NCBI GenBank assembly: GCA_022646745.1
Contig: CP060262.1
Location: 1,710,001-1,742,000, forward strand
From: Planctomycetales bacterium
Lineage (GTDB): Bacteria; 4484-113; JAFGCY01
Length of the DNA stretch: 32,000 bases
Direction of reading: 5' to 3'
The position numbers and the translations under genes are program-made. Of this stretch, positions 2,840-28,775 are shown piece after piece; within the stretch, counting starts at the first letter, position 1, and every line of letters starts with the position of its first letter. The notes below the pieces were generated by a model. It was not told the origin of the DNA and searched no databases. It saw only the letters and a program-made list of their open reading frames with translations.

Positions 2840-3126
2840 TCAGGGATCGGGTACCTGGGACCGGGGACCAGATGAGAGACAGATGTGAGGGACCCGGGAC
2901 CAGCCTGAGGTCAGATTTCACAGTATCGCTACCTTGTTCCTGGGGTCAGGAATCCACCATTTTTCAGTGGCGTGGTTCCTGGGACCGGAGTGGAGTCAAT
3001 GGTATGAGTTTTCGTTCCGGCTCCCTGATTCCTGCTCCCTTCTTCTGGTCCCAGGTCCCGGGTCCCCGGTCCCTGATTCCCGGTCCCTACTTCTGGTCCC
3101 AGGTCCCGGGTCCCCGGTCCCTGATT
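2840..3126. repeat. ORF-less intergenic cassette bounded by GGGACCN-heptamer inverted repeats
   Basis: 2840-2871 pairs with 3093-3124 read backwards at 28 of 32 positions, plus 2 G-T pairs. The left arm is G-rich with a 7-nt period (tcaggga tcgggta cctggga ccgggga). The right arm contains a 48-nt unit x2 (3031-3078 and 3079-3126). The cassette ends 1 nt from the truB stop codon. Confidence 0.85.
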
Positions 3127-4127
3127 TATCCGAGTACTTTCTCCGGGCGCAGCTCGACCAGGCCCTGCGGGGTCACGCCGTGGAACTGCAGCACCGCCAC
3201 GAGCTCACGACCGTCCAGTGCGAACACGGTGTCCCCCTCGCCGTAGCTGCCCGGCGGCAGCGCCTTGCGCGGGCAGCGGATGCCCATTCCGTTGCGCAGC
3301 ATCCCGCACTGCTGGGCGTCCAGCTGCAGGCTGGCCTGGCCATTGGCAATCGCGCCGAGCGGCTCAAGCAGGTCCTCCACAGTCGCGCCTTCCTCCAGCC
3401 GCGCCGCCACATCCTCGAGCCGCATCGCATCATCGAGGCTGAACGGGCCGACGCTTTCGCGGCGCAGCCGACCCATGCAGCCGAGGCTGCCGAGGTCCGC
3501 CGCCACATCGCGAGTCAGCGAGCGGATGTACACCCCGCCACGGCCCAGCACCCGCACGCGCGCGCGTGCCAGCGGGCCGATCTCGTCGATGCGCTCCAGC
3601 AACTGGCTGTCCTCCCAGAGCACATCCTTCGGGTCCAGCCCGCTTTCGAAGTCCAGCAGCTCAGAAGAGATCACCTCTACCTGCTTCGGCTGCACCTCCA
3701 CTTCCTCGCCGGCCAGTGCATAGCGGTACAGTTCGCGCCCGCCGACCTTGGTTAGGCTGAAGGCGGGTGGGATCTGCTGCAGCTCACCGGTGTACTGCGC
3801 CAGCATCGCCGCGAACTGCTCGCGCGTCGGCAGCGGCTGCTCGCTGACGGCGGACAGCTCGCCCGCCAGGTCGTCGGTGGTTGTTGACATGCCGAGGATG
3901 AACTCCCCGGTGTAGCTCTTCTCGAAGCCGGCGAAGTGCTGGAACAGTCGGGTGGCGCGGTTGATCCCGACCACCAGCACGCCGGTCGCCGGCTTGTCCA
4001 GCACGCCTGAGTGCCCCATCTTGCGGATGCGCAGCATGCGCCGCAGCTCGCGGATCACGTCAAAGGAGGTGATCCCGGAGGGTTTGTCAATTGTCAGGAA
4101 GCCGCTCGGGCCGTTGTTGCCACTCAT
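3126..4127 (-). CDS. truB: tRNA pseudouridine(55) synthase
   Basis: 333 aa. GFLTIDKPSGITSFDV and GHSGVLDKPATGVLVV (catalytic Asp motif) are present, with a C-terminal PUA-like extension. Lies downstream of rbfA-nrnA. Confidence 0.92.
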   Translation of the reverse strand: MSGNNGPSGFLTIDKPSGITSFDVIRELRRMLRIRKMGHSGVLDKPATGVLVVGINRATRLFQHFAGFEKSYTGEFILGMSTTTDDLAGELSAVSEQPLPTREQFAAMLAQYTGELQQIPPAFSLTKVGGRELYRYALAGEEVEVQPKQVEVISSELLDFESGLDPKDVLWEDSQLLERIDEIGPLARARVRVLGRGGVYIRSLTRDVAADLGSLGCMGRLRRESVGPFSLDDAMRLEDVAARLEEGATVEDLLEPLGAIANGQASLQLDAQQCGMLRNGMGIRCPRKALPPGSYGEGDTVFALDGRELVAVLQFHGVTPQGLVELRPEKVLG

Positions 4128-4155
4128 CTCTCACCAGCTCGCCAAGGCTGCGGGA

Positions 4156-5217
4156 TCAGTCCCCGCTGCCAAGGCGCAGCTCCTCCATATGCAGTCGCAG
4201 GGTGCTCTCGAGGATCGCCGGGGCCTCGTCAATCCCGGCATGGATGCGGAAGCCGGAGGCCGCGGTATGCCCGCCGCCGCCGAAGCGCCGCGCCACGGCC
4301 CGCACGTCGAAGCCCTCGTTGGAGCGCGCGCTGACCTTCACGTTGCCATCCTCCTCCTCCTTGAGGAAATAGGTGGCGTCGTAGCCGTCCACGGTCTTCA
4401 GGATGTCCGTTGCGCCTTCCGTGTCACTGAGCACGGTGCCCGTCTCGCGGACCATCTCCTGTGTGACGTAGCAGTAGAAGTAGCCCAGCTCGTCATTCGC
4501 GGTCATCGTGTTCAGGATCATCGCCAGGAGCCGCATCTGCCCCGGCGTGCGCGTGTTGTAGACGCGGTTGTATACATCAAAGGGGTCGACCCCGATCTCG
4601 ATCAGCTCGCCGGCGATCACGAAGGTCTCATGCTTCGTGTTGCCATAGCTGAAGCGGCCGGTGTCGGTGATGATCGTGGCGTAGAGGTTGATCGCCATCT
4701 CCAGGCTGACTTCCCAGCCGAGGTGGCCGAAGAAGCGGTAGAACAGCTCGCCGCAGGCCCCGAAGCTCGGGTCGACGAGGTTGATGTCGCCGTAGCACTG
4801 GTTGCCAAGGTGGTGGTCCATGTTGATCATCAGGCAGCCCTCGGCGTGCTGCTTCGTCTCAGGGCCGATCCCGAGTGCGGTCAGCTGCTCGCAGTAGGCC
4901 CGGCCCAGCCGGTCGAAGGCCCCGTTGTCATTCGCCATGATGATGTCGGGCAGCTCACTCGGCAGTTCCGAGACATGTTCGAAGCGGTCGGCGTAGGGCA
5001 GGTCGCGGTACATGCGCGGCATCGGGTCCGGCGTGAACATCCGCACCTGCTTGCCCATGCGGGTCAGCGCCTCATAGACTGCGCTGTTGCAGCCGACGGT
5101 GTCCCCGTCTGGATTCTCATGGCAGAACAGCCAGACGGTGCTGGCCTGCGAAAGCAGGCTGCCGATGCGCTCGAACAGGCCGTCGCGCTGGTCAGCCGTG
5201 ATGTATCCGTCAGCCAC
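4156..5217 (-). CDS. nrnA: DHH/DHHA1 phosphoesterase (oligoribonuclease / pAp phosphatase NrnA-like)
   Basis: 353 aa. Contains the HENPDGDTVG and MDHHLGN (DHH) motifs and the GGGGH motif of DHHA1. Sits in the classic position between rbfA and truB. Confidence 0.82.
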   Translation of the reverse strand: MADGYITADQRDGLFERIGSLLSQASTVWLFCHENPDGDTVGCNSAVYEALTRMGKQVRMFTPDPMPRMYRDLPYADRFEHVSELPSELPDIIMANDNGAFDRLGRAYCEQLTALGIGPETKQHAEGCLMINMDHHLGNQCYGDINLVDPSFGACGELFYRFFGHLGWEVSLEMAINLYATIITDTGRFSYGNTKHETFVIAGELIEIGVDPFDVYNRVYNTRTPGQMRLLAMILNTMTANDELGYFYCYVTQEMVRETGTVLSDTEGATDILKTVDGYDATYFLKEEEDGNVKVSARSNEGFDVRAVARRFGGGGHTAASGFRIHAGIDEAPAILESTLRLHMEELRLGSGD

Positions 5218-5249
5218 GCTGGCGGTGCTGTGATCTGAACTGGAAATGA

Positions 5250-5633
5250 CTATTCCTCCTCGAGGCTCGAGTAGTCGTCGCGGTAGTCCGGGATTTCATT
5301 CAGCAGCTTCTCGACCTCGGCCGCATACTGCAGCGAATGGTCTTCCATGAAGCGCAGGCGCGGCACGATGCGCAGGTCAGTCTCCTCGCGCAGCCGCCCC
5401 CAGATCAGGCCGGAAGCCCGGTTGAGCGCCTCGACGCATTCCTTCGTGCGCTCACCGCCCGCAAGCGTGGAGATGCCGACCTCCGCATGCGCGAGATCGG
5501 GCGAGACGTCCACCTTGGTGATGCTGTAGCCCTCAATGCGGGGGTCCGACAGCTCACCGCTGATGATCTCGCTGATGGTTCGCAGCACGAGGGATTCAAT
5601 CCTCGCCTGGCGCTTGTGTGAAGCTCGTCCCAT
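5250..5633 (-). CDS. rbfA: ribosome-binding factor A
   Basis: 127 aa. RIESLVLRTISEIISGELSDPRI...ITKVDVSPDLAHAEV and LRIVPRLRF are typical of RbfA. Confidence 0.9.
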   Translation of the reverse strand: MGRASHKRQARIESLVLRTISEIISGELSDPRIEGYSITKVDVSPDLAHAEVGISTLAGGERTKECVEALNRASGLIWGRLREETDLRIVPRLRFMEDHSLQYAAEVEKLLNEIPDYRDDYSSLEEE

Positions 5634-6825: not shown

Positions 6826-6893
6826 CTACAACCCAGACGATAATCCGGGAAGCGGGAAAGAGGGCTTCCCGGGATATCCATCCCCCACCCATC

Positions 6894-6924
6894 AGGGCGC
6901 ATCGCGAGGTGCGCCCTTTTTGTT
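6894..6924 (+). terminator. rho-independent terminator of the Gly-rich protein gene
   Basis: An 8-bp GC stem (agggcgca / tgcgccct) with an 8-nt loop is followed by tttttgtt. Confidence 0.65.
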
Positions 6925-6925
6925 A

Positions 6926-7136
6926 GGTTGCAGGGTGCAGGGAGCAGGTTGCAGATCCGGGATGAGGTATGCGGGATGTGGGATGTGGGAGCGCGTAGCG
7001 CAGGCATGCGTAAGCCTGACACAGCTGCGCATTTGCGGGAAGCGGAGGGGTGCAACTTGCTTGCACGCAATGCAATGGTAGAACGGAGGTGCGACACTGG
7101 CTGTCGCATCTCCTCATCCCCCATCCCTCATCCCGC
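6926..7136. repeat. ORF-less cassette bounded by GGGATGN-type heptamer arrays
   Basis: Nine in-phase G-rich heptamers span 6926-6988 (ggttgca gggtgca gggagca ggttgca gatccgg gatgagg tatgcgg gatgtgg gatgtgg). C-rich heptamers span 7107-7134. 6971-6990 is complementary to 7117-7136 at 17/20. The interior holds strong hairpins, for example ggaggtgcgaca-ctggc-tgtcgcatctcc at 7085-7113. Confidence 0.8.
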
Positions 7137-7154: not shown

Positions 7155-8519
7155 CTACAGGTCCGCGCTCTCCATGTAACCCGGCACATGGCACAGCCAG
7201 TCCAGCTCATGCGTGATGCGCTCGCGCATGGAGTCGGCGGCGTTCTCCTCACCATGCGTGATGAAGGTGTTCCGCGGGCGTTTCTCGATGCTGCCCAGCC
7301 AGTCCATGATCTCGCGGTAGTCGGCGTGCGCGCTCATGTTTGACAACTGCTCCACCTCGCAGTTGATCGGCACGTCGTCACCGAAGATGCGGATGCGGTC
7401 CATCCCTTCGAGGATCTTGCGGCCGCGGGAGCCCGCCGCCTGGTAGCCGGCGAACAGGATCATGTTCTTCGGGTCAGGTGCGAAGGCCTTGATGTGGTGC
7501 ACCACGCGCCCGCCGGTTGCCATTCCGCTGGCGGAGATGATCACCTTGGCCTGGCGGTTGAGGTTCAGCTCCTTGCTGTCCTCCACGCTGTTGACATAGC
7601 TGACCTTGTCGAACACCTTGCGCAGGTAGTTGCAGTCGATGCGGTGGCTGTCGGAGCAGTCGTCATAGATGTCCGTCGCGTTGACAGCCATCGGCGAGTT
7701 GACGTAGACCGGCACCTGCGGCACGTCCCGGCGTTCCATGATCTCCGAGATGAACAGGATCAGCTGCTGCGTGCGGCCGACTGCGAAGCTCGGGATCACC
7801 ACGGTGCCGCCGCGCTCCAGCGTGCGCTTCAGGCATTTCGCCAGCCCGATGCGCGGGTCGATGTCCTCATGCAGGCGGTCGCCGTAGGTGGACTCGCACA
7901 GCAGGTAGTCCGCTTCGTGGTAGGGCGTGGGCGGCACGAGGATCTCGTCCTTCAGGCGGCCGATGTCGCCGCTGAACAGGATCTTCTTATCGCCCAGCTT
8001 CAGCATCAGGTGCGCCGCGCCGAGGATGTGCCCGGCGGGCAGCCACTGCGCACTGATCCCGTCCGCGATGTCCAGCCAGTCGCCGAAGCGGACCGACTTG
8101 AATAGCCCCAGCGCCTTCTCACCATCCTCCGCGGTGTACAGCGGCTGCGGGTCCTCATGCTTGGAGTAGCCCTTGCGCTTGGCGTACTTCGCATCCTCCT
8201 CCTGCAGGTAGCCGCTGTCCGGCAGCAGGATACGGCACAGCTTCTGCGTGGCCGGGGTGCAGTACACCGTGCCATTGAAGCCGAGCTTCTTCAGGCGCGG
8301 GATGTAGCCCGAGTGGTCGATGTGTGCATGCGTCAGCAGCACAGTGTCGATCTGGGAGGGCTTGATCGGGAAGTCGTCCCAGTTGCGCAGGCGCAGGGGC
8401 TTCAAGCCCTGGAACAGGCCGCAGTCCACGAGGATCTGCTGGCCGGCGTACTCCACGAGGTACTTGGAGCCGGTCACCGTCTGGGCGGCACCGAGGAAGG
8501 TCAGCTTGATGTTGCTCAC
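7155..8519 (-). CDS. MBL-fold beta-CASP ribonuclease (RNase J / CPSF-like)
   Basis: 454 aa with a GTG start. LTFLGAAQTVTGSKYL and LLTHAHIDHSGYIP (the HxHxDH metallo-beta-lactamase motif) are present, with the beta-CASP and C-terminal RNA-specificity region (SAHAD). Confidence 0.85.
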   Translation of the reverse strand: MSNIKLTFLGAAQTVTGSKYLVEYAGQQILVDCGLFQGLKPLRLRNWDDFPIKPSQIDTVLLTHAHIDHSGYIPRLKKLGFNGTVYCTPATQKLCRILLPDSGYLQEEDAKYAKRKGYSKHEDPQPLYTAEDGEKALGLFKSVRFGDWLDIADGISAQWLPAGHILGAAHLMLKLGDKKILFSGDIGRLKDEILVPPTPYHEADYLLCESTYGDRLHEDIDPRIGLAKCLKRTLERGGTVVIPSFAVGRTQQLILFISEIMERRDVPQVPVYVNSPMAVNATDIYDDCSDSHRIDCNYLRKVFDKVSYVNSVEDSKELNLNRQAKVIISASGMATGGRVVHHIKAFAPDPKNMILFAGYQAAGSRGRKILEGMDRIRIFGDDVPINCEVEQLSNMSAHADYREIMDWLGSIEKRPRNTFITHGEENAADSMRERITHELDWLCHVPGYMESADL

Positions 8520-8532
8520 GGTCTAACTATAA

Positions 8533-8881
8533 GGGATGGGGGATGCGGGATGGGGGATGGGGAGGGTGCGTCACGCCACGGCGTGACTTGCGCACAATGG
8601 GATGGGGGATGCGGGATGGGCAGAATGGGATGTGGGATGTGGGATGGGCAGTAGTCAGTGGGCAGGGAGACTTAGCGGCGACATGTTGTCGCCTGATCTT
8701 CCAGGAACCTATCCGCTCAATGCCGTCTGGGAGGCGTAGGGCAAGGCCATCGTGCCTTGCCCAGGATGGCGACAGCCATCCGGTTGGAAAGCACTTGCCA
8801 AAATTGCTGTCGCCTATGCCGACAGGCACAGGCTTGCGATCTTCATCTGCTCATCCCGCATCCCCCATTCCACATCCCTCA
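8533..8881. repeat. cassette bounded by GGGATGN heptamer arrays, with hairpins and a 55-nt conserved element inside
   Basis: G-rich heptamers span 8533-8566 and 8599-8667 (gggatgg gggatgc gggatgg gcagaat gggatgt gggatgt gggatgg gcagtag tcagtgg). C-rich heptamers span 8852-8878. 8533-8559 pairs with 8852-8878 at 23/27 plus 1 wobble. The last heptamer runs directly into the stop codon (tca, 8879-8881) of the PKD gene. Confidence 0.85.
8731..8785 (+). repeat. conserved 55-nt GTAG-headed double-hairpin element (REP-like), copy 1
   Basis: The sequence is gaggcGTAGggcaaggccatcgtgccttgcccaggatggcgacagccatccggtt. It has a 9-bp stem gggcaaggc/gccttgccc and a 7-bp stem ggatggc/gccatcc. It matches the reverse complement of 16742-16796 at 48 of 55 positions. 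Confidence 0.8.
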
Positions 8882-11548
8882 GCTGCTGCGGATCGCCACC
8901 CTGAGCGTGTTCACATCGCTGTCAAAGCGGCTGTAGCAGACGATGCTGTTGCCATTGGCAAAATGTGCGAGGTCCACGAACACATCTGCGCTGCCGGGCG
9001 TGAAGGTATTGGGACTTGCCGAGATGTCCTCAATGGTCCAGCTGCCCTCGTCCTGGATTGCGAAGCGCACGTGCGTGCCGCTGCCGTCGAACTCCGTGTA
9101 GGCGATGCAGGCCGTACCATCCGGCATATAAGCCAGCTGCGAAACCAGCGCGATTTCCTCGCCACTTCCTGTATCGGTGACAATGGTGATGTCCTCGTCG
9201 GCAAGCACTGTGTCATCCTCTGCCAGTTCCGTATAGCGCAGGCCGGTGTCGGTGCCGCTGATGCTCTGGTAGCTCATGCCGGTGTAGCTGCCAGGCAGGA
9301 TGTCAATGCTTCCGAACAGGCCGCTGTCAGCATTGGCAAAGGGATTTGCCCAGTTGCCACCGTCCTCACGCAGGTACAGGCCGCCAGCCAGGCTGGCCTG
9401 CATCTCGCCAGTGGTGTCGTGGTAGCGCATATGCGGGAATGTCAGGCCGGTGCCGAAGCCGTACCAGCGGGTGTAGGTCAGGTTCCCGGGGGTGCTGGCC
9501 GGGTCATACGTCAGGTCGTAATAGTTCAGGTCCTGGGCGTTGAGCGTCGGACTGTTCGAGTTCTCGACGCAGTTGCTGATGCCGAAGTGGGTGTTGACCG
9601 GGTTGTAGTCAATCCCCGTCCAGATCGCGCCGTCTCGCGCCAGCTGGGCCTCGGTCGCAATGTTGCTCAGGTAGAAGTTGTACCAGGTCGGCACTTCATT
9701 CGTGATGTTCAATGCGCTGAAGCCCACAACCGAGTTTTCGGCCGGCACGGCGGCGGCTGGGTCGATGTAGACCAGCGACACGCGTGGCAGGTTCTCCCCG
9801 TCCGCAAAGCCGATATCGGTGAATGCAGGGAAGCCCGGTGGCACGATCGCCCCCAGCAGGTCAGTATTGGTCCAGTTCGCGGGAGCCGCCAGGTCCAGGG
9901 TGCTGTCGCCGATCACGACAAAGGGCTTCAGTACATTCGGATCCAGGTTTGCATAGGCCACCATCGGGTTGCCATTGCTGGCAACGGCCACGCTCGGTGT
10001 CCAGCCACCGTCCGTGCCGGTGATTGTTGACAGGTCCACTTCCGTCCACTGGAAGGTGGGCTCGCCTGTCACCTCAAAGCTGAAGTTCAGTGTGTCATTG
10101 CCAAAGGAGTTGGATGCAGTCACGCTGCATTCGTAGATGCCGGGTGCGCCCAGCGTTTCCAGCGGGTTCTCGTCAGGGCTCGTGGCCGGCGTGGCGGCCG
10201 GGCCGAACTGCCAGTCCCAGGTGTCAACCGTGCCGGTGTAGCTCGGTGTGAAAGTGATTTCCGCCCCACTTGCACCGCTGAGCGGATCAACCGAGATGAT
10301 CACCGGCGCCTCGCCGGACTGCGTGACTTCGAAGCTGAAGTCGAACTGGTCGCTGCCGAACAGGTTCGTGGCGGTCACGCTGCAGTTGTAGGTGCCTGGC
10401 TCGCCCAGTTCCACATCCGGGCTTTCCAGCGTGCTGCTGTCCGGGTTGCCAGCGCCGTTGAATTGCCAGTCCCAGCTGTCAACGGTGCCGCTGAACTCCG
10501 GGATGAAAGTGACAATGCTGCCGCTTTCGCCGGACAGCGGGCTGACCGCCGTCACATCCGGTGCCGCGCCCGTCACCGGGCCGACTTCCAGCGTGAAGTT
10601 GAACACCGCCTCGCCGAAGCGTGACAGCGCCGTCACGCTGGCACTGTAGCTGCCCTCGGCACCGAGCGTGATCTGCGGGCTCTCCTCCGTGCTTGTGTTG
10701 GGGCTGGCGCCACCGCCGAAGTTCCACTCCCAGCTTTCCACCAGGTTGCTCACACTGGCGACGGGCTGGATCTGTGCGCCGGTCTCGCCACTGCTCGGGC
10801 TGACACTGCCCACTTCCGGCGCGCTGCGGTCCACGTCGAAGCCGACGCGGTCCAGCTGGATGCCATTGCCGTCATGCGTCAGCACGAACAGGAACACGTT
10901 GCCAAGCGGGGAAACGTAGTCGGCATAGGCCGTCAGGGTCTTCGTGTAGGTCTCACTCTCGCTGCGGTCGAGGATTTCCCAGCGGCCGCTTGCATAGTTG
11001 GCCAGCCCGACGAGGAAGCCCGGGCTGCCACCGGTGAAGTTCACGTTGCTGGTCTCGATCGTCAGCTTGTTGAAGCCGAGGTCACCGTTGACATCGGGCA
11101 GCATGTAGATCGCCCAGTTGCGCTGGCCGGCCCCGGTGAACATGCTGAGGCTGGTATTGCTGACAACCGCATTGGAGGACTTGTCGAAGGCATCCGCCCC
11201 ATCCTTCCATTCTCGGCCGATCCCGCTGGCACTGCGCGATCCCGAAAGATCCGCTTCCATGCCAGACAGGGAAGGCAGGCCGCTGTCACGTGCGACGAAC
11301 AGGCTGCTGAGTGCCGGGTCGAGTGCATTGGCGGAATCCAGCGGGATGCTCGAGAAAATGGACTGCGAGTCAGTCCGGTCCACGTTGGCTGTTCCCGCAT
11401 CCGTGCCCAGCGCCGGTCTCAGTGACTTCCCGGCCTGTACGGAGCGGTCTCCGACACTGTCCAGCCCGTCACGGGAGTGCTGGCTGCCGGAGCAACCGAT
11501 CAACACCGCTGCAATAAGCAGCATCAGGGCCCAGTTCACAATCCTCAT
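8879..11548 (-). CDS. surface lipoprotein with three PKD-like domains and a C-terminal repeat (propeller-like) region
   Basis: ATG at 11548 with a GGAGA RBS is preferred over the GTG at 11560. The signal peptide and lipobox are MRIVNWALMLLIAAVLIGC. Three ~85-aa repeats carry W(E/D)WxF(G/N)G motifs. The C-terminal blocks (NGNPMVAY..., IACIAYTEFDGSGTHVRFA, NGNSIVCYSRFDSDVNTLRVA) resemble the tail of the 1433-aa protein. Confidence 0.8.
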   Translation of the reverse strand: MRIVNWALMLLIAAVLIGCSGSQHSRDGLDSVGDRSVQAGKSLRPALGTDAGTANVDRTDSQSIFSSIPLDSANALDPALSSLFVARDSGLPSLSGMEADLSGSRSASGIGREWKDGADAFDKSSNAVVSNTSLSMFTGAGQRNWAIYMLPDVNGDLGFNKLTIETSNVNFTGGSPGFLVGLANYASGRWEILDRSESETYTKTLTAYADYVSPLGNVFLFVLTHDGNGIQLDRVGFDVDRSAPEVGSVSPSSGETGAQIQPVASVSNLVESWEWNFGGGASPNTSTEESPQITLGAEGSYSASVTALSRFGEAVFNFTLEVGPVTGAAPDVTAVSPLSGESGSIVTFIPEFSGTVDSWDWQFNGAGNPDSSTLESPDVELGEPGTYNCSVTATNLFGSDQFDFSFEVTQSGEAPVIISVDPLSGASGAEITFTPSYTGTVDTWDWQFGPAATPATSPDENPLETLGAPGIYECSVTASNSFGNDTLNFSFEVTGEPTFQWTEVDLSTITGTDGGWTPSVAVASNGNPMVAYANLDPNVLKPFVVIGDSTLDLAAPANWTNTDLLGAIVPPGFPAFTDIGFADGENLPRVSLVYIDPAAAVPAENSVVGFSALNITNEVPTWYNFYLSNIATEAQLARDGAIWTGIDYNPVNTHFGISNCVENSNSPTLNAQDLNYYDLTYDPASTPGNLTYTRWYGFGTGLTFPHMRYHDTTGEMQASLAGGLYLREDGGNWANPFANADSGLFGSIDILPGSYTGMSYQSISGTDTGLRYTELAEDDTVLADEDITIVTDTGSGEEIALVSQLAYMPDGTACIAYTEFDGSGTHVRFAIQDEGSWTIEDISASPNTFTPGSADVFVDLAHFANGNSIVCYSRFDSDVNTLRVAIRSS

Positions 11549-11600: not shown

Positions 11601-11635
11601 TCAGGGACCTGGGACCGGGGATCTGGGACCGGGGA
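11601..11635. repeat. left inverted-repeat arm (GGGACCN heptamers) of the four-helix-bundle cassette
   Basis: The arm reads tcaggga cctggga ccgggga tctggga ccgggga. 11601-11630 pairs with 12311-12340 at 26/30 plus 1 G-T. Confidence 0.85.
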
Positions 11636-11714: not shown

Positions 11715-11743
11715 TTGACTTTATTGTAGTTACAGGTTACTAT
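11715..11743 (+). promoter_or_regulatory. sigma70-like promoter for the four-helix-bundle gene
   Basis: TTGACT (11715-11720), a 17-nt spacer, then TACTAT (11738-11743), in an A/T-rich patch. AGGAG lies at 11761-11765. Confidence 0.55.
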
Positions 11744-11772: not shown

Positions 11773-12150
11773 ATGGATGCAGTTTCTTACAAGGACCTGA
11801 TTGTCTGGCAACTGGCAATGGATTTCGTTGCAGAGATCTACCGGCTCACCGGATCATTCCCGAGGGACGAAATGTACGGGATGACTTCACAGATCCGCAG
11901 GGCAGCGGTTTCCATTCCTGCCAACATCGCGGAAGGCAATGGCAGGGCGAGTCGGCGGGATTATGCCCACTTCGTGTCCATCGCCCTTGCTTCAGCCAGG
12001 GAGATTGAAACCCTGCTACTGATATCCAGGGGGCTCGGATTCATTTCCAGCGGACATGCTGAAGAGTTAGACAGCAAGCTGGATGAAATTGCGAGGATGC
12101 TGTTCAGCATGCACCGTAAACTGGCAACACCGGTAGTTGGCACAAACTGA
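11773..12150 (+). CDS. four-helix-bundle protein (23S rRNA intervening-sequence protein / DGR Avd family)
   Basis: MDAVSYKDLIVWQLAMDFVAEIYRLTGSFPRDEMYGMTSQIRRAAVSIPANIAEGNGR.S.RDY..F..IA.AS..E is the hallmark pattern of this family. ATG at 11773 is 7 nt after the AGGAG; the track start at 11767 is a GTG. Confidence 0.85.
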   Translation: MDAVSYKDLIVWQLAMDFVAEIYRLTGSFPRDEMYGMTSQIRRAAVSIPANIAEGNGRASRRDYAHFVSIALASAREIETLLLISRGLGFISSGHAEELDSKLDEIARMLFSMHRKLATPVVGTN

Positions 12151-12220: not shown

Positions 12221-12340
12221 CCGGTCCCAGATCCCCGGTCCCTAGTCCCTTCTTCTGGTCCCCGGTCCCTGGTCCCTTCTTCTGGTCCCCGGTCCCTGGT
12301 CCCTTCTTCTGGTCCCCGGTCCCCGGTCCCTGGTCCCTCA
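12221..12340. repeat. right inverted-repeat arm (NGGTCCC heptamers) with a 27-nt unit x3
   Basis: The unit cccttcttctgg... recurs at 12247, 12274 and 12301 (period 27, which is three heptamers plus tcttct). The terminal 30 nt are complementary to 11601-11630. A 9-bp hairpin agtagctcc-gca-ggagctact (12341-12361) follows and overlaps the aminotransferase stop codon. Confidence 0.85.
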
Positions 12341-12356
12341 AGTAGCTCCGCAGGAG

Positions 12357-13538
12357 CTACTTCCCGACGAAGTCCTTCAGCCGGGCCATGCCCTTCTCGA
12401 TGTCCGCGTCAGGTGTTGCCAGCGAGAGGCGGAAGAAGCCCTCGCCGTACCAGCCATAGGCGCGGCCCGGGCCGACCACCAGGCCGGTCTCGTTGAGCAG
12501 GCGGCTGCACCAGTCGAAGCTGTCGGTCTCGCCCTCCGGCAGGCGGCACCACACGAAGATGCTGCCACCGGGGCGGAAGTTGACGATGCCGATCTTGTCC
12601 AGCTCGTCGCAGATCCGGTCGCGGCGCTCGCGGTAGTGGTTGCGGTTTTCCCTGAGGAAGGAATCGCAGCGCTCGTCGTCAAGGATCCGCGAGCAGGCGA
12701 TCTGGATCGCGTTGAATGTGCCGCTGTCCACATTGCTCTTGACGGTGCCGAGGCCCTCGATCAGCAAGGGGTTGCCAACCGCGAAGCCGCAGCGCCAGCC
12801 GGTCATGTTGAAGCTCTTCGAGAAGGAGTGGAACTCGATCACGCAGTCCAGCGCACCGTCGAACTCCAGCAGGCTGGCCGGCGGGTTCTCCTCATCGTAG
12901 AAGATCTCCGTGTAGGCCGCATCGGACACGAGGATGATGTCATGCTTGCGCGCGAACTGCACCACGTCGTTGAGGTACTCGCGCGGCGCCACGCGGCCGG
13001 TCGGGTTGTGCGGGAAATTGAGGTAGCGCACCTTGGCCCGGCTGATCATCTCCTTGGTCAGCTCGTCGCTCATGTTCGGCAGGAAGTCGTTGTCAGGATG
13101 CACCGGCAGGGTGGAGCTGGCACCGCCGAACATGCGGGCCACCGTGCCGAACACCGGGTACAGCGGGTCGGGCTCGATCACATGGTCGCCGGGATTGACG
13201 ATCGCGCGGCAGACGTTTGCCAGCGCTTCCTTGCTGCCGAGTGTGGTCAGCACGTTCTCCATCCCGAGCCCCTTCACCCCGAAGCGGCGCTCCATGTAGC
13301 GCAGGGCTGACTCCAGCAGCTTCGGGTGGCCCTTGTAGCTCGGATAGCGGTGGTTGCCGCTGCGCATCACTTCCTCGGCGAGGAACTCGCGCATCCACTC
13401 GGGCGGGTCGCGGTCGGGGTCGCCAATGCCCATTGACACCGTGTCGATGCCACGTGCGCGGGCCTCGTCACGGGCCTTGTCAATCTGGGCGAACAGGTAG
13501 GGCGGAAGCTTCTTCAGCCGCTCGGCAAGCTGGATCAT
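12357..13538 (-). CDS. class I/II PLP aminotransferase (LL-diaminopimelate aminotransferase-like)
   Basis: 393 aa. Contains LPPYLFAQID...GIGDPD, NHRYPSYKG, NFPHNPTG and SFSKSFNMTGWRCG (PLP lysine motif). Confidence 0.8.
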   Translation of the reverse strand: MIQLAERLKKLPPYLFAQIDKARDEARARGIDTVSMGIGDPDRDPPEWMREFLAEEVMRSGNHRYPSYKGHPKLLESALRYMERRFGVKGLGMENVLTTLGSKEALANVCRAIVNPGDHVIEPDPLYPVFGTVARMFGGASSTLPVHPDNDFLPNMSDELTKEMISRAKVRYLNFPHNPTGRVAPREYLNDVVQFARKHDIILVSDAAYTEIFYDEENPPASLLEFDGALDCVIEFHSFSKSFNMTGWRCGFAVGNPLLIEGLGTVKSNVDSGTFNAIQIACSRILDDERCDSFLRENRNHYRERRDRICDELDKIGIVNFRPGGSIFVWCRLPEGETDSFDWCSRLLNETGLVVGPGRAYGWYGEGFFRLSLATPDADIEKGMARLKDFVGK

Positions 13539-14830: not shown

Positions 14831-14916
14831 TGCGACATTATCGGCAGCATGGCGATGTTAATATAGCTGCTCGGTAATCCCTTTAATAATCATCTAACAC
14901 CCATCAGGGGAACAAT

Positions 14917-16245
14917 ATGCGTATCTTTTCTATGCTGCTGGCGGCCGTGATCGCGATCTCGGTCCTGCCCGGCATCGCACACGCGGACATCAATGCGGAA
15001 ACGAGGGCCGAGGCCATCGCCCGTATCCAGGAGCGCGATCCCAATTACGGCGGCGGGGCCCACGCCGGCGGCGGCCAGACGGCTGCTTCCATGGGCATGC
15101 ACAGGGGCGACAGTGCCTGGGAGGAGTTCTGGGTACAGGACATCGACTTCCGTCCCTTCATGGGCCGCCTGCGCACGGTGCTGCTCGAGGACCCCGGCAT
15201 GGCGTCCTGCACGGCGAAGGATGACATCATCAGCTTCCTGGACCAGATGTACCTGTTCAACATGGGCACCTCGCATGTGGACATGGCGATCACCGGTGAT
15301 GACATCATGTTCAACTGTGCCCAGACCTGCGAGGGTCTGCCGGCGGACAGTGCCCCGGCCCGCCTCGGCGCGCTGGAGAACCTGCCGCTGCAGAGCTACA
15401 GCCTGGTGGACGACGGTGACTTCATCATGTACATGGGCATCCAGCACATGCCGACGCGCCTGATGATCCAGCTTGATGAGATGCAGCGCCAGGCTGCGAT
15501 GGCGGAGGGCATGGACGGCCCGCTGTCCGAGATCTTCAGCGAGATGGACATGCAGGAGCTGGAGCAGACCATGCAGCTCATGAAGGCGATGCAGATCGAC
15601 AAGATCATCGACAGCACCCTGTCCGGTGAGGTCGGCATCGCGCTGTTCGACATGCCTTCCATCGACATGCTGGTGAACGGCGGCGACGTGCAGCCGACGG
15701 ACTTCGTGGCCGCTGTGGCGATCGGCATCAAGGATGCTGAGTACGTCAGGGAGATGATGGGCACCTACGGCAGCGAAATCGGCCTGACCCCTCGCCCCGA
15801 CAGCGGTGCCAACGGCTGGGACGTGTTCGACGTGCCGATGATGCCGGGCCTCGGCATCGTGATGAACGACAGCATGGTGGTTGCCACCACCAATGCCGAC
15901 TTCGTGCTTGGCAAGCTGATGGACGGCGGCTCGATGAGCGTCGCTCCCTGCCAGGCGCACTTCGCGCTCAACATGGCGGCGCTGAACGGCAAGGTCGTGG
16001 AGCCCGGCATGAAGATGCTGGCCGACGAGATCGCCGATGGCAATGACGAGGTCTACTGGCCGGTGGACAGCATGAAGTACCTGTGGGACGTGCCTGAGCA
16101 GGACGGCCTCGGATACATGACGATGACCGCCTACACCGGCGACGCGATGCGCCACGAAATGCGCATGAAGAAGGCCGTGTTCCAGTACCTGATGTACTAC
16201 ATCAGCACGATGGGCGCCGGCGTGATCCAGACCGAGATGCATTAG
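14917..16245 (+). CDS. secreted methionine-rich protein of unknown function
   Basis: AGGGGAA RBS. Signal peptide MRIFSMLLAAVIAISVLPGIAHA. Strong GC3 bias in this frame. A manual count gives 44 Met in 442 aa. The 511-aa minus-strand ORF over the same DNA is a His-rich shadow (CAT is the antisense of ATG). Confidence 0.8.
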   Translation: MRIFSMLLAAVIAISVLPGIAHADINAETRAEAIARIQERDPNYGGGAHAGGGQTAASMGMHRGDSAWEEFWVQDIDFRPFMGRLRTVLLEDPGMASCTAKDDIISFLDQMYLFNMGTSHVDMAITGDDIMFNCAQTCEGLPADSAPARLGALENLPLQSYSLVDDGDFIMYMGIQHMPTRLMIQLDEMQRQAAMAEGMDGPLSEIFSEMDMQELEQTMQLMKAMQIDKIIDSTLSGEVGIALFDMPSIDMLVNGGDVQPTDFVAAVAIGIKDAEYVREMMGTYGSEIGLTPRPDSGANGWDVFDVPMMPGLGIVMNDSMVVATTNADFVLGKLMDGGSMSVAPCQAHFALNMAALNGKVVEPGMKMLADEIADGNDEVYWPVDSMKYLWDVPEQDGLGYMTMTAYTGDAMRHEMRMKKAVFQYLMYYISTMGAGVIQTEMH

Positions 16246-16399
16246 GAGGCCAAGCTGTAAGCTTGGCAACGGATGCCCGGTTACAAGATGTGCGCCGGAG
16301 CTCAGTCCCGCCGGAGGCCAAGCTGTAAGCTTGGCAATTGCCAGGCAGAACTGCCTGGCCTCCACCAGGGGTGCTGCATCCCGCGAAGCAGGATGCAGC
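16245..16399 (+). repeat. array of perfect hairpin modules in the 3' region of the Met-rich gene
   Basis: A 25-nt module ggaggccaagctgtaagcttggcaa occurs at 16245-16269 and 16313-16337 (stem gccaagct/agcttggc). Further hairpins are ccaggcag-aa-ctgcctgg (16341-16358) and gctgcatcc-(9 nt)-ggatgcagc (16373-16399). Confidence 0.8.
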
Positions 16400-16430
16400 C
16401 GACAGATCTGGCAACATCGATCCAATCAAG

Positions 16431-16460
16431 GGGGAGCCTCCGGGCTCCCCATTTTTGTTT
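16431..16460 (+). terminator. rho-independent terminator
   Basis: ggggagcc-tccg-ggctcccc followed by atttttgttt. Confidence 0.7.
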
Positions 16461-16510: not shown

Positions 16511-16659
16511 GCCAACTGCCTTCTGCCAATAGCCTTCTGCCTTATGTCAACTACCACTGAAGCGGTAGCTCCATTGTGCGACCTGCGTCGCTGCTCCGGT
16601 ATGCTGGCCACTGGCCATTGATAACTGCCAACTGACGACCGACCACTGCCTACCACCCA
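16511..16659. repeat. C-rich heptamer arrays (solo arms) downstream of the RAYT gene
   Basis: The first block reads gccaact gccttct gccaata gccttct gccttat gtcaact accactg (16511-16559). The second reads ctggcca ctggcca ttgataa ctgccaa ctgacga ccgacca ctgccta ccaccca (16604-16659). They are related to the CAGTGGT family at 28668-28775. A 9-nt unit ctattcg.. x3 lies at 16704-16730. Confidence 0.75.
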
Positions 16660-16741: not shown

Positions 16742-16796
16742 AAACGGATGGCTCAAGCCTTCCTGGGCAAGGCACGGTGGCCGTGCCCTACGCCTC
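16742..16796 (-). repeat. conserved 55-nt REP-like element, copy 2 (inverted relative to copy 1)
   Basis: The reverse complement is gaggcGTAGggcacggccaccgtgccttgcccaggaaggcttgagccatccgttt, matching 8731-8785 at 48/55. It lies 42 nt beyond the RAYT stop codon. Confidence 0.8.
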
Positions 16797-16837: not shown

Positions 16838-17470
16838 TCAGACTTTCGTCTGAGCTCCGGCTAGCGCTGAAGCGGGTAGCTCCGCAGCACTGCTCCAGCG
16901 CCACTCATGCGCATGCGCGCACAGCCCGGCGCTGACCGGGTTGTTGTGGATGTACTCCACCGCGGCGTCGAAATGCTCCTCATGCTTAATGCGGCTGAGG
17001 AAGCTGCCATCCAGCCAGACCTTGCCGCTGCGTTGCATAAGCTTGTTGATCTGGCCGGCGCTGAAGCCCTTGATCGCCCCGACCAGCCGGCCCAGCGAAT
17101 AACCCCCCAGCGGCTCCATCAGGCAATGCACGTGGTTGGGCATGATCACCCAGGCATGCATCCGGTAGCGCTGCCTGTGGTAATGCAACAGGCTGTCGCG
17201 TACGATGGCAGCCAGCCGCTCCTCACGCAGCCAGCACTGCCCGAGTCCGCGGTCGAGGTCCGGCTCGACACGGTTGAACAACCGGCGACGGTCCTCGGAT
17301 TCGATCCCCTGCTGCAGCTGGTACATCCGCCTCGGCGGTACGGCATCAAACAACTGGAAGGTCACCGCCTGCAGGCCACTGCCCGCCTGCGGTGCCTGCG
17401 GGGCCGCCTGCACCGGCTTCGCCTCCTGCCTTGCCACAGCCTCAGGCTGGGCTGTCTGGATCTCGCTCAT
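16838..17470 (-). CDS. REP-associated tyrosine transposase-like protein (RAYT; IS200/IS605-type Y1 HUH enzyme)
   Basis: 210 aa. Contains the HUH motif in WVIMPNHVHCLMEP, the catalytic Tyr motif in VEYIHNNPVSAGL, and the terminal EWRWSS typical of this family. No second (TnpB) gene and no IS ends are visible. Confidence 0.85.
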   Translation of the reverse strand: MSEIQTAQPEAVARQEAKPVQAAPQAPQAGSGLQAVTFQLFDAVPPRRMYQLQQGIESEDRRRLFNRVEPDLDRGLGQCWLREERLAAIVRDSLLHYHRQRYRMHAWVIMPNHVHCLMEPLGGYSLGRLVGAIKGFSAGQINKLMQRSGKVWLDGSFLSRIKHEEHFDAAVEYIHNNPVSAGLCAHAHEWRWSSAAELPASALAGAQTKV

Positions 17471-20028: not shown

Positions 20029-20108
20029 GGGCGAGTGGCGGAATTGGCAGACGCGCCAGACTTAGGATCTGGTACTTCGGTGTGGGGGTTCGAGTCCCCC
20101 CTCGCCCA
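20029..20108 (+). tRNA. tRNA-Leu (anticodon UAG), class II with long variable arm
   Basis: Manual fold: acceptor gggcgag/ctcgccc, D arm gcg-gaattggcaga-cgc, anticodon arm ccaga-cTTAGga-tctgg, variable arm tacttcggtgt, T arm ggggg-ttcgagt-ccccc, discriminator A. CCA is not encoded. TATAAT at 20015-20020 lies just upstream. Confidence 0.88.
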
Positions 20109-20118
20109 GATCCTTTTG

Positions 20119-20386
20119 CCGTCTCGTGCGAGCACTCGACGGTCCTAGGGCGCGCAGCCACTTCGGGAGCCTGCTCCCTCAGTGCTGCAGGCACTGATTC
20201 CAATTGAGCACATTGCAGTCTCGTGCGAGCACTCGACGGTCATGGGGCGCGCAGCCACTTCGGGAGCCTGCTCCCTCAGCGCTGCAGGCACTGATTCCAA
20301 TTGAGCACATTGCCGTCTCGTGCGAGCACTCGACGGTCTTGCTTCGCGCAGCCACTTCAGGAGCCTGCTCCCTCAGCGCTGCAGGC
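20119..20386 (+). repeat. 97-bp tandem repeat, 2.8 copies, starting 10 nt after the tRNA
   Basis: Units start at 20119, 20216 and 20313 and are near-identical, differing at about nine positions between the first two copies. Each begins c(c/a)gtctcgtgcgagcactcgacggtc, followed by a 6-7-nt variable patch (ctaggg / atgggg / ttgcttc) and a gggag-cctg-ctccc hairpin. The third copy is truncated at 20386. Confidence 0.9.
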
Positions 20387-26083: not shown

Positions 26084-26147
26084 AGCAGTTATAGTAGCAA
26101 TGGGACTAGGTTCTCATTTGTGTGAAATTTCTGAGAATGGCTTGACA

Positions 26148-26167
26148 AGAGAGAGAGAGAGAGAGAG
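26148..26167. repeat. (AG)10 dinucleotide microsatellite immediately after a TTGACA box
   Basis: TTGACA at 26142-26147 is followed by agagagagagagagagagag (26148-26167) and then ttaactt. It lies about 40 nt upstream of the Cys-rich gene start. Confidence 0.9.
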
Positions 26168-26206
26168 TTAACTTGAACTCAATTAATTGAATACGAGGTA
26201 ATCTTC

Positions 26207-26662: not shown

Positions 26663-26734
26663 TAAACCGATTATCCAGAGAATTGTCATTAACAGACCTA
26701 GTACACCTAAGATTCTAACCAATAGGAGAATGAA

Positions 26735-27580: not shown

Positions 27581-27598
27581 GCGGGGTAGCAGCCCGGT

Positions 27599-28648
27599 TC
27601 AGTAACCGCGCGTGCAATCCACGATGTTAAGCAGGTCATCCCGGCCGGCGCTCAGGCGCTTGAGGTTCTCGATCACTTCATCCCAGCGCTCAAGGTCGTC
27701 AAAGGGCGAGGCGGCGCGATGCGGGCTGAGCACTACATTGCCAAGTTCGTGGAAGGGGCGGTGCCAGGGGAACATGCGGCCCTGTTCATCAGGTTCAGGG
27801 CGGTAGTCGTACCAGACATCAATCGCGGCCCCGGCGAGGAAGCCGCTTTCAAGCGCTTCGAACAGCGCGTCCTCTTTGACAACACCGCCGCGTGCCACGT
27901 TGACAAGGAAGCTGCCCTGGCCCAGCAGCTCGATCTCGCGCCTGCCGATCAGGCCTTCACTGTCAGGCGTGAAGGGCACGGCGACCACCAGCACATCCAC
28001 CGCCTGCAGGAAGTCGTCAAGCTGCTCTATCGAGTGCAGGCCGTCCAGCGTGGCCGGGCTGTCAGTTGACAGGCTGCCGCTTCTGTTGCAGGCGAGCACC
28101 CGGCAGCCGAAGCCGGAGAGCATCAGGTGCACATTGCGGTTGACATGGCCGTAGCCCAGCAGGCCGATTGTCCTGTGGCTGATCGGTGTGTTGGCAAGGA
28201 ATTCATCCCCCAGCCGCCACTTCCCCGCAAGCATTGCGTTATGGTGCTGCACGGTGCCGCTGAGCATTGCCAATAACAGCGTGACGGTGGTCTGCGCGGT
28301 GAAGGCCGCATTGCCATGCCCGTTGATCAGCACGATGTCCCGCGTCTGCTGGATCTCAGCGAACATGCCGTAGAGGTGCTGCACCCCGGCGCCGGGGTTG
28401 ATCACGGCTTTGAGTTTCGGCGCAGCGTCAATCAGTGAGCGCGTCGGACGCCAGCCGAGCAACACATCGGCATCACCGGCCAGCGGCAGCAGCAGCGATT
28501 CATCCGCTCCGGTCCATTCATGGCCATCGGGAGCGGAGATGAAGTGCACGGGCCAGCCCTTGAGCCCCTTTGTCATGTAGTCCAGCAGCTCGGGGCGCGG
28601 CTGCCAGAGGCAGAGCACATTGATGTCACGATGGCGGGGATCAGGCAT
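27599..28648 (-). CDS. D-isomer-specific 2-hydroxyacid dehydrogenase family, NAD-binding
   Basis: 349 aa. Contains IGLLGYGHVNRNV (Rossmann GxGxxG), LVNVARGGVV, AAIDVW and LSPHRAA (catalytic His). Confidence 0.82.
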   Translation of the reverse strand: MPDPRHRDINVLCLWQPRPELLDYMTKGLKGWPVHFISAPDGHEWTGADESLLLPLAGDADVLLGWRPTRSLIDAAPKLKAVINPGAGVQHLYGMFAEIQQTRDIVLINGHGNAAFTAQTTVTLLLAMLSGTVQHHNAMLAGKWRLGDEFLANTPISHRTIGLLGYGHVNRNVHLMLSGFGCRVLACNRSGSLSTDSPATLDGLHSIEQLDDFLQAVDVLVVAVPFTPDSEGLIGRREIELLGQGSFLVNVARGGVVKEDALFEALESGFLAGAAIDVWYDYRPEPDEQGRMFPWHRPFHELGNVVLSPHRAASPFDDLERWDEVIENLKRLSAGRDDLLNIVDCTRGY

Positions 28649-28667
28649 GGGAGAAGTGTAGGGGAAA

Positions 28668-28775
28668 CCAGTGGTCAGTAGTCAGTGGTCAGAAGTCAGA
28701 TCGCATTCTTCCTGACCACCGACCACTGACCACCGACCACTGACCACCGACCACTGACCACCGACCACGGACCAC
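28668..28775. repeat. hairpin-forming inverted heptamer arrays (CAGTNGT / NNGACCA), right arm 14-nt unit x4
   Basis: The left arm is ccagtgg tcagtag tcagtgg tcagaag tcag (28668-28699). The loop is atcgcattcttc. The right arm is ctgaccaccgacca x4 (28712-28767) plus cggaccac. There are 26/32 Watson-Crick pairs on the plus strand. Four of the six mismatches are A-C, which become G-U on the minus strand. Confidence 0.85.

Follow-up and report, generated by a model that had tools for sequence, protein, structure and literature searches.

Polar inverted heptamer arrays in intergenic spacers of a planctomycete and their association with genes of the "23S rRNA-intervening sequence" four-helix-bundle protein family

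Inverted heptamer cassettes in the window

The stretch analysed here (the window) comprises 32,000 nt of contig CP060262.1 of Planctomycetales bacterium (assembly GCA_022646745.1, positions 1,710,001 to 1,742,000) with a G+C content of 62%. Five of its intergenic spacers, or slots, are occupied by cassettes in which a G-rich array of tandem heptamers is followed by its C-rich reverse complement. Cassette 4 encloses a gene for a four-helix-bundle (4HB) protein of the family PF05635, "23S rRNA-intervening sequence protein"; no gene is present in the other four cassettes. The association of such genes with inverted heptamer arrays recurs in many phyla, and is the main subject of this study. The features are as follows (positions in the window, strand, description):

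2840-2875, + strand: G-rich arm of cassette 1, GGGAYC heptamers; tip TCAGGGAT, 18 nt from the FTCD start codon
3017-3126, + strand: C-rich arm of cassette 1, GGTCCCN heptamers in a 48-bp higher-order unit (2.3 copies); tip TCAGGGAC on the - strand, with its end 1 nt away from the stop codon of TruB
6925-6990, + strand: G-rich arm of cassette 2, an AGGGTGC sub-array (6925-6954) and then a GGGATGN array (6954-6990)
7107-7136, + strand: C-rich arm of cassette 2, CATCCCN heptamers; 18 nt from the beta-CASP stop codon
8530-8651, + strand: G-rich arms of cassette 3, GGGATGN arrays at 8533-8566 and 8592-8651 with a hairpin between them; tip TAAGGGAT, 10 nt from the beta-CASP start codon
8846-8881, + strand: C-rich arm of cassette 3; its tip, TGAGGGAT on the - strand, holds the TGA stop codon (8879-8881) of the PKD-domain gene
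11601-11635, + strand: G-rich arm of cassette 4, 4.6 GGGACCN units; tip TCAGGGAC
11715-11743, + strand: promoter-like TTGACT-17-TACTAT, located within cassette 4 in its AT-rich spacer and recognised by its match to the consensus and its conservation
11773-12150, + strand: 4HB protein gene, 125 aa, PF05635/TIGR02436, Avd-like
12221-12340, + strand: C-rich arm of cassette 4, 17 GGTCCCN units in a 27-bp higher-order unit (3.7 copies); tip TGAGGGAC on the - strand
28668-28699, + strand: G-richer arm of cassette 5, 4.4 CAGTNGT units, without G-runs
28712-28776, + strand: C-rich arm of cassette 5, 8.9 GACCACN units; a 12-nt loop lies between the arms
16511-16545 and 16596-16659, + strand: weak, degenerate C-rich period-7 stretches without a partner arm
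16838-17470, - strand: REP-associated tyrosine transposase (RAYT; REP, repetitive extragenic palindrome) gene, NF047646 with 86 bits (cut-off 80); syntenic in a related species with 74% amino acid identity

An earlier note on this DNA, made from the letters alone, had proposed that the five slots follow one plan of inverted period-7 arrays, and Tandem Repeats Finder, a self-match scan, the complementarity of the arms and predicted RNA folds all agree with it. Tandem Repeats Finder calls arrays of period 7 or 14 in all five slots, and a sliding scan of the window over periods 3 to 12 detects a self-match of at least 0.70 in 62 windows at period 7 and in none at any other period. The heptamer words are GGGACCN, GGGATGN and CAGTNGT. 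In each slot a G-rich array precedes its reverse complement, with arms of 20-36 nt that are 82-95% complementary:

Cassette 1: 2840-2875 with 3041-3076 and 3092-3124; 33-36 nt, 86-88% complementary
Cassette 2: 6958-6990 with 7112-7136; 20-24 nt, 88-90% complementary
Cassette 3: 8532-8564 and 8598-8624 with 8846-8881; 27-33 nt, 82-93% complementary
Cassette 4: 11603-11632 with 12221-12250 and 12311-12338; 28-30 nt, 89-93% complementary
Cassette 5: 28669-28699 with 28712-28776; 31 nt, 84% complementary

The termini are paired in the predicted RNA folds of all five cassettes (z of -5.9, -2.57, -6.66, -2.66 and -7.0 for cassettes 1 to 5). The cassettes occupy their spacers almost completely, and nine of the ten tips lie 0-40 nt from the end of a flanking gene. 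No complementary partner was found for the AGGGTGC sub-array of cassette 2, which is immediately preceded by a terminator-like hairpin (6893-6920). The solo arms that the note had placed at 16511-16659 are represented by a period-7 signal of 0.60-0.61, which is weak, is not called by Tandem Repeats Finder and has no partner arm, and it is doubtful that these stretches belong to the heptamer family at all.

The four-helix-bundle gene of cassette 4

That one cassette carries a gene had been recognised correctly, but not the family to which it belongs, and it is this identity that leads to the closest relatives of the cassettes. The product matches PF05635 with an E-value of 1.5e-39 (134.9 bits, cut-off 33.8) and TIGR02436, "four helix bundle protein", with 3.1e-37 (127 bits, cut-off 24). 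Its closest solved relative is XCC0516 of Xanthomonas campestris (PDB 2GSC, E 5e-22), and it shows a weak similarity to the Avd proteins (PF22296, E 1.6e-4; NF033474, E 1.5e-6; PHROG Avd, E 1.3e-11). The arms at 11603-11632 and 12221-12250, 93% complementary, enclose the open reading frame (ORF), which is antisense to both neighbours, the PKD-domain gene and an aminotransferase gene.

Compared with its orthologue in a related species, the gene is 0.82, 0.87 and 0.51 identical at the first, second and third codon positions, a pattern that indicates purifying selection; the -10 region of the promoter-like site and an AAGGAG ribosome-binding site are kept there as well. An alignment of 28 family members features a strongly conserved polar motif, S-[IV]-P-[AS]-N-I-A-E-G. 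Two solved structures of the family have been deposited with five chains each, and solved members are described as homopentamers (PMC4990558). A search with PADLOC returned no match to a defence system for either the 4HB protein or the RAYT.

Heptamer arrays around 4HB genes across phyla and in viral contigs

The alignment of 28 members was scanned against one genome per species, which yielded at least 80 loci from Planctomycetota, Acidobacteriota, Bacteroidota, Patescibacteria, Proteobacteria, Chloroflexota, Verrucomicrobiota, Clostridia and an archaeon. Our census consists of the listed loci, the window and two related loci, and comprises 83 4HB genes with sufficient flanking sequence in 1.30 Mb. 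These loci contain 174 arrays of period 7, against at most 20 for any other period from 4 to 13 and none or one in shuffled sequence. Arrays cluster at the genes: the sequence up to 500 nt from a 4HB gene constitutes 6.7% of the total and holds 37% of them.

Of the 83 4HB genes, 50 are flanked by inverted arms that exceed the 99th percentile of the cross-locus controls, with a period of 7 in 43 cases and of 8 in six. The arms have a median length of 31 nt and bracket the ORF tightly (the median distance to the gene is 41 nt on its upstream side and 17.5 nt on its downstream side), and 22 of the 50 cassettes provide no room for a promoter. Viral contigs of IMG/VR display the same flanking arms in 22 of 38 4HB genes. 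A typical array is 4.9-6.3 units long. Every locus has a word of its own, and AG is part of the consensus unit in 29 of 39 cases, 26 of which read YAG. Gene-less pairs are common too, and constitute 20 of the 52 non-redundant inverted pairs of the census.

Other arrays in the same 20-kb locus share the word of the 4HB arms in 29 of 114 cases, compared with 3% under the null, and cassettes with the same word have more similar proteins (0.53-0.54 vs 0.45 identity; Spearman p 2e-4). CTAGGGG flanks the 4HB genes of a gammaproteobacterium, a Planctomycetaceae metagenome-assembled genome and Ramlibacter (loci L081, L082 and L022), and GGCAGTC those of two alphaproteobacteria and an acidobacterium (L070, L085 and L037). 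Such same-word proteins from different phyla are 45-70% identical, which suggests that gene and arms can be transferred as one unit. Arrays far outnumber the genes: among 120 metagenome contigs seeded on GGGACC arrays only one has a 4HB gene nearby.

The window's own genome holds a further cassette of this kind. A paralogous 4HB gene, 57% identical, is preceded by a fourth word, AGAGAGC, in an array that begins at the stop codon of the preceding gene, and is followed by GCTCTCT. Arrays are thus not confined to the window region, in line with the earlier expectation of a family of elements instead of a local duplication.

Orientation of the arms

The note had also claimed a common architecture in which the G-rich strand always reads inward, and this claim gained considerably from the wider sample. 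Since the arms are inverted repeats, "G-rich first" holds equally on both strands. It applies to all five slots of the window. Among the 50 4HB genes with arms, the upstream arm has more G than C in 44 and more C than G in four. Of the 52 inverted pairs, the 32 around a 4HB gene include 27 with the G-rich arm first, none with the C-rich arm first and five that are ambiguous; the corresponding figures for the 20 gene-less pairs are 15, three and two. The total of 42 against three has a two-sided binomial probability of about 9e-10. Three of the gene-less "pairs" span ordinary genes with gaps above 1 kb; at gaps of up to 300 nt there are 13 G-first pairs, three C-first pairs and one ambiguous pair. 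The independent metagenome sample seeded on GGGACC arrays agrees, with the partner located downstream (G first) in 17 cases and upstream in two; 35 of the 59 testable arrays in this sample are solo. In base composition the inward-reading arms have 36% G and 15% C in loci with 55% G+C.

Pairs with gaps of 1.2-1.5 kb (L072 and L042) were considered as cassettes with cargo genes and rejected, as they consist of arrays with one word that occupy neighbouring spacers on either side of ordinary genes. The orientation is clearly violated in Thiohalocapsa (L017, 5927-6104), where a gene-less C-first pair has a GC skew of -1.0 and then +1.0 on the two sides of a 105-nt gap; the same locus also possesses a G-first 4HB cassette with the same word.

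Tips and G-quadruplex motifs

The six termini of cassettes 1, 3 and 4 all read T-N-A-G-G-G-A-Y inward, as had been noticed, and all nine TNAGGGAY matches in the 32 kb fall inside cassettes. Their total is not above chance (9 vs 5.4 expected); it is their localisation that is notable. The outer ends of the slot at 6926-7136 are without a TNA tip. Cassettes of the related species possess the T-N-A tip as well. As a universal terminus the motif was rejected, because T-N-A is present on only five of 137 GGGACC arrays of other organisms in metagenomes, a count obtained with a crude extension of array boundaries. Judged by these occurrences, the tip is a lineage-specific feature.

A similar distinction applies to the G-quadruplex (G4) type G-runs that had been counted as part of the shared plan. 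Motifs of the type (G3+N1-7)x4 number 12 in the window and 4.5 in shuffled sequence; the GGGACC and GGGATG arms hold nine of the 12, and for these two families the description is accurate. The CAGTGGT and AGAGAGC families of the same genome share the architecture and have no G-runs, and only 39 of 242 period-7 arrays in the census (16%) contain a G4 motif. G4 potential therefore belongs to particular words and not to the architecture.

Related species and strains

Synteny with the window extends from FTCD to RAYT in a related species (GCA_041395205.1; locus L010). The products of the neighbouring genes are 66-94% identical, and identity at the four-fold degenerate sites of these genes is 64-71%, which corresponds to a neutral divergence of about 30-35%. 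The four slots covered by this locus are all occupied (the slot at 28668 lies outside it), and their contents differ: the 4HB gene is again located between GGGACC arrays, of other lengths; the FTCD-TruB slot holds a G-first pair with different, TAG-containing words; and in the slot between the beta-CASP and PKD-domain genes the tip alone remains. Within each of the two species the arms are 93-96% complementary. This is more than expected from independent drift, and implies that the slots are old and that their sequences turn over while pairing is maintained.

A 99-nt module occurs at L010 in two copies that are 92% identical (5270-5368 and 10641-10739), in different spacers and each directly inside a GGTCCC arm, so that sub-terminal sequence, and not the array alone, is common to cassettes in the related species. 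In the window, the arms of cassettes 1 and 4 share a higher-order interruption, CTTCTTCTGG, with 82-91% identity over 44-93 nt. BLAST matches between cassettes are confined to the arms, with one REP-like hairpin as the exception. Gene-less cassettes were considered as deletion derivatives, which we rejected: their interiors align to cassette 4 no better than shuffled sequence. A six-frame hmmsearch of the gene-less cassettes revealed no 4HB remnant (best E 2.9, positive control 6e-58).

Metagenome contigs from the same population match the window with 99.7-100% identity. A comparison of strains, proposed earlier as a check for both insertion polymorphism and variation in unit number, produced the latter only. 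Exactly one 27-bp unit of the 3' arm of cassette 4 is absent from two strain-level contigs that are at least 99.9% identical elsewhere; all six strain-level contigs, a small sample, carry the cassette, and no presence/absence polymorphism was detected among them. Contigs frequently break at the arrays.

Relation to known repeat systems

The closest counterparts of the gene-bearing cassettes are the intervening sequences (IVS) of 23S rRNA, in which the PF05635 family was first found (Leptospira, Coxiella burnetii; PMC4990558). The Coxiella IVS encloses an S23p ORF within a 28-bp terminal stem that RNase III cleaves in vitro; the ATG is preceded by GACAGAT in two or three tandem units, a number that varies by strain (Warrier et al., PMC4990558). 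Cassette 4 and the 23S IVS have in common a PF05635 ORF enclosed by inverted repeats that form a long stem, a strain-variable number of units, and heptamers beside the ORF; GACAGAT is itself a unit with more G than C that contains CAG. In contrast to the 23S IVS, which are inserted in helix 25 or 45, the cassettes of the window are located between protein-coding genes, and there is no 23S rRNA in the window: an Rfam scan at gathering thresholds returned tRNA-Leu as the only known RNA family, and no rRNA. The arms in the window are moreover themselves long tandem arrays, four of the five cassettes are gene-less, and the 4HB gene is under apparent purifying selection and has its own promoter-like site.

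A second set of close counterparts is known from Xanthomonas, where GGGAATC heptamers form 70-75 inverted pairs per genome that are "always" convergent (Rehm et al. 2015, PMC4692102). These arrays begin 0-50 bp from the neighbouring ORF and may overlap its stop codon; their position is conserved and their length variable between species. They form G4 and i-motif structures in vitro, transcripts start or stop at them more often than at controls, a counterpart in Nostoc reads GGGGAYT, and their function was left open (PMC4692102). The window resembles Xanthomonas in its convergent inverted pairs, in array starts no more than about 50 bp from the end of the adjacent ORF and, for GGGACC and GGGATG though not for CAGTNGT, in tandem GGGNNNN heptamers that number about four units and include a G4 motif. 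It differs in phylum and words, and in that words without G4 potential share the architecture. The text of Rehm et al. contains neither "S23" nor "four helix", and makes no link to a 4HB gene (PMC4692102). The earlier opinion that the elements are an uncharacterised family consequently needs qualification: convergent G-rich pairs at gene ends have been published for Xanthomonas (PMC4692102), as have heptamers and stem of the Coxiella IVS (PMC4990558), whereas we found no publication of the link between 4HB genes and heptamers in general.

The note's comparison with the short tandemly repeated repetitive (STRR) sequences holds for intergenic tandem heptamers without an assigned function, and is only a loose analogy since STRR belong to filamentous cyanobacteria and the host here is a planctomycete. 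STRR are defined by three specific words, and a paired, oriented architecture is not known to be part of their definition. The words GGGACCN, GGGATGN and CAGTNGT are not STRR words, and the host is not a heterocyst-forming cyanobacterium; GACCACN/GTGGTCA of cassette 5 is one mismatch from TTGGTCA, which we take to be the STRR2 word. According to the SPADE survey, which had "no clear clue" to their function, tandem heptamers outnumber all other periodic repeats in intergenic DNA in many prokaryotes (PMC6344855).

The cassettes also recall the REP/REPIN-RAYT systems (REPIN: inverted pair of REPs), in which intergenic inverted hairpin pairs are dispersed over the genome and one conserved gene is flanked by the repeat. 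A REP consists of one imperfect palindrome of about 20-40 nt headed by a conserved GTAG, unlike the heptamers, which are tandem arrays, and for the 4HB protein we know of no catalytic activity. The REP-like hairpins of the window are a separate family: a GTAG-headed hairpin (GTAGGGCAAGGC...GCCTTGCCC) lies just 3' of the RAYT gene (16761-16796, - strand) and has a 94%-identical copy in cassette 3 (8731-8768, + strand). Both copies were detected by BLAST; a fixed-spacing search returned nothing because their loop lengths differ.

With Avd of the diversity-generating retroelements (DGRs) the 4HB protein shares a homologous fold. It is distinguished from Avd by its NF033474 score (28.5 bits, cut-off 80) and its surroundings, since the immediate neighbours are PKD-domain and aminotransferase genes and not a reverse transcriptase gene. 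MITEs (miniature inverted-repeat transposable elements) are similar in being small non-coding units with inverted termini that form families within a genome, and dissimilar in that the cassettes have no target-site duplications, unrelated interiors, tandem-repeat arms of variable length, and a syntenic persistence across species.

Possible explanations for the cassettes

The explanation that we favour, with a confidence poised evenly between acceptance and doubt, is that the cassettes are IVS-type elements residing in intergenic spacers, whose arms would pair in read-through RNA to form a duplex that RNase III cuts. It draws on the shared gene family, the shared anatomy with heptamers beside the ORF, the tight bracketing of the ORF, and the maintained complementarity of the arms. 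A full cassette would be made up of a G-rich heptamer array, a short spacer, the Avd-like PF05635 gene and the reverse-complement C-rich array, a gene-less one of two arrays around a short loop. Upon read-through transcription from either side, the arms would pair into a long duplex, which could tolerate shifts in register and the gain or loss of units because the arms are tandem repeats. By analogy with the rRNA-borne members of the gene family, for which experiments have demonstrated it, RNase III may cut this duplex in the cell, and the cassette would thereby be removed from the flanking message and the RNAs of the neighbouring genes separated; any role of the protein is hypothetical. The arrays would change by replication slippage, and selection for pairing, or else a correction by template switching from one arm to the other, might keep them complementary. 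For the polarity of the arms our best guess is that the upstream message is left with a structured, C-poor 3' end, and that unpaired C-rich, G-poor RNA is exposed only on outward transcripts that start inside the cassette.

Several observations weigh against this explanation. Mismatches between arms that are compatible with G-U pairing show no excess on either strand (79 sense vs 76 antisense; transitions in 74 cassettes). Strand-specific selection on RNA, for which this comparison gives no signal, was therefore rejected, and maintenance at the DNA level, by cruciforms or by template switching at quasi-palindromes, fits equally well. The promoter-like site of cassette 4 is located inside the arms, so that the gene's own mRNA would carry the 3' arm alone. 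The fold z-scores of cassettes 2 and 4 are modest (-2.6), and the prevalence of solo GGGACC arrays in metagenomes (35 of 59) is not explained by a model of paired stems. A rationale for the polarity in terms of Rho would not be general if cyanobacteria lack this factor, which to our knowledge they do.

We also considered the arrays as three-frame stop insulators with a TAG every 7 nt. This idea was discarded: TAG is present in 14 of 39 consensus units, and the GGGACC arrays of the window are free of stops except at the tip.

The 4HB protein might alternatively be a dedicated partner of the arrays, comparable to RAYT and its REPINs, which maintains, spreads or regulates the arms; we think this rather unlikely. 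Such a protein would putatively bind the units, perhaps one per subunit of a pentameric ring, and would also serve gene-less pairs of the same word. Avd homologues of DGRs act in RNA-protein complexes, and the conserved S-[IV]-P-[AS]-N-I-A-E-G motif suggests a ligand site. The bracketing of about 60% of 4HB genes in two independent collections, the sharing of words within a locus (29 of 114 vs 3%) and the greater similarity of same-word proteins (p 2e-4) point in the same direction, as does the match between arrays of 4.9-6.3 units and solved members with five chains, described as homopentamers (PMC4990558). On the other hand, only one of 120 GGGACC-seeded contigs has a 4HB gene nearby, several word families coexist per genome against two 4HB genes of this genome among the matches listed, and the correlation between protein and word is expected equally from a co-inheritance of gene and arms. 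If the protein were such a partner, PF05635 genes and inverted heptamer arrays would form a two-part system across bacteria, some archaea and viral contigs, a proposition to which we attach little credence, and, with no better prospects, the pentamer would recognise 7-nt units (often YAG plus four nucleotides) on the inward-reading strand and would maintain, copy or regulate its own arms as well as the gene-less pairs. A purely neutral origin has slightly less to recommend it, and we consider it improbable: slippage would expand units in pre-existing hairpins, template switching would match the arms, and 4HB genes would merely land or survive in such spacers, without any function of the arrays. 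It would account for the unit-number polymorphism among near-identical strains, the large turnover of lengths between species, the lack of a G-U asymmetry and the frequent breaks of contigs at arrays, and 7 nt has been suggested as a slippage-prone length (cited in PMC4692102). Slippage does not, however, predict an orientation of 42 to three across phyla, an association with one gene family that places 37% of the arrays in 6.7% of the sequence, the occupation of the same slots in different species, or an enriched YAG phase (AG in 29 of 39 units, YAG in 26).

Mobility, which the earlier note had suggested, did not stand up well. Arms that are terminal inverted repeats recognised by a transposase, with gene-less copies as non-autonomous members, would be compatible with the CTTCTTCTGG interruption shared by cassettes 1 and 4, with the T-N-A tips at six termini, with the RAYT gene (16838-17470) adjoining the weak arrays, and with identical words around 45-70% identical proteins in different phyla, which suggest that cassettes are transferred as units. 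We nevertheless regard this as quite improbable. Target-site duplications are absent; the TNA trinucleotides of the two ends are inverted and not direct (TCA...TGA, TAA...TCA), and no other direct repeat is seen at the junctions. Interiors of gene-less cassettes are unrelated to one another and to cassette 4 and hold no 4HB remnants, synteny of four of the five slots, and of the RAYT gene, persists at a neutral divergence of about 30-35%, the six strain contigs display no presence/absence variation, the REP-like GTAG hairpins differ in sequence from the arrays, and the tip is not a property of GGGACC arrays elsewhere (five of 137). No evidence for recent transposition was found in these comparisons. 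Least probable in our opinion, and indeed very unlikely, is a regulatory role in which G-rich arms fold into G4 and C-rich arms into i-motifs that modulate transcription or translation of the adjacent genes. The excess of G4 motifs in the window (12 vs 4.5 expected, nine in arms) and the formation of G4 and i-motifs in vitro by the similar GGGNATC heptamers, which prefer four units (PMC4692102), would fit such a role. Against it stand the 39 of 242 census arrays that have a motif, the identical architecture of the CAGTGGT and AGAGAGC families without G-runs, and the competition of complementary arms with G4 formation.

Other features of the window

Some further observations concern the surroundings of the cassettes. 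The beta-CASP metallo-beta-lactamase ribonuclease gene (7155-8519, - strand) is the only gene of the window with GGGATG cassettes on both sides; the top NCBIfam match of its product is the type VII CRISPR Cas14 model (374 bits, cut-off 800), and it also matches archaeal aCPSF1. Small hairpins of the type GCGACA...TGTCGC occur inside cassettes 2 and 3 (7085-7113, 8681-8697, 8769-8782 and 8806-8826), and similarly in spacers of L010; they may be a further short palindromic family nested in the loops of cassettes. The aminotransferase gene is separated from the tip of cassette 4 by a 10-bp hairpin (12341-12362), which overlaps the gene's stop codon and is kept in the related species (L010, about 10806-10826) by two compensatory pair changes, CT/AG to AG/CT.

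Farther away, a 97-bp unit is repeated 2.8 times with 94% matches (20116-20386, + strand) directly downstream of tRNA-Leu (20029-20108), with two short hairpins per unit, and a perfect (AG)10 dinucleotide run is present at 26148-26167. The longest ORF at 14890-16425 (- strand; 511 aa) has no Pfam match and is probably spurious. A 442-aa ORF on the + strand (14917-16245) is favoured instead, as gene calls on related contigs and its conservation in the related species (68% amino acid identity) support it; a terminator-like hairpin follows at about 16431-16457.

Significance for heptamer repeats and 4HB proteins

The four-helix-bundle "23S rRNA IVS" proteins are a large family for which we know of no function. 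Beyond the Coxiella IVS we found no literature that connects PF05635 to heptamer arms, with the reservation that a database comment or a paper outside our search may exist, and the connection of these genes, across phyla, with polar arrays of inverted heptamers is apparently new. In many phyla, and in viral contigs, inverted heptamer arrays bracket about 60% of 4HB genes, each locus with its own word and with a near-universal polarity. Two open questions are thereby joined, and the abundance of heptamers in prokaryotic genomes gains a candidate protein partner. There is also a practical side, as the arrays break assemblies and seed spurious ORFs in GC-rich genomes, and their recognition improves annotation. 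Should genes and arrays truly be the two parts of one system, which we hold to be doubtful, this would explain both the dominance of heptamers in prokaryotic intergenic DNA and the purpose of the "23S rRNA IVS proteins".

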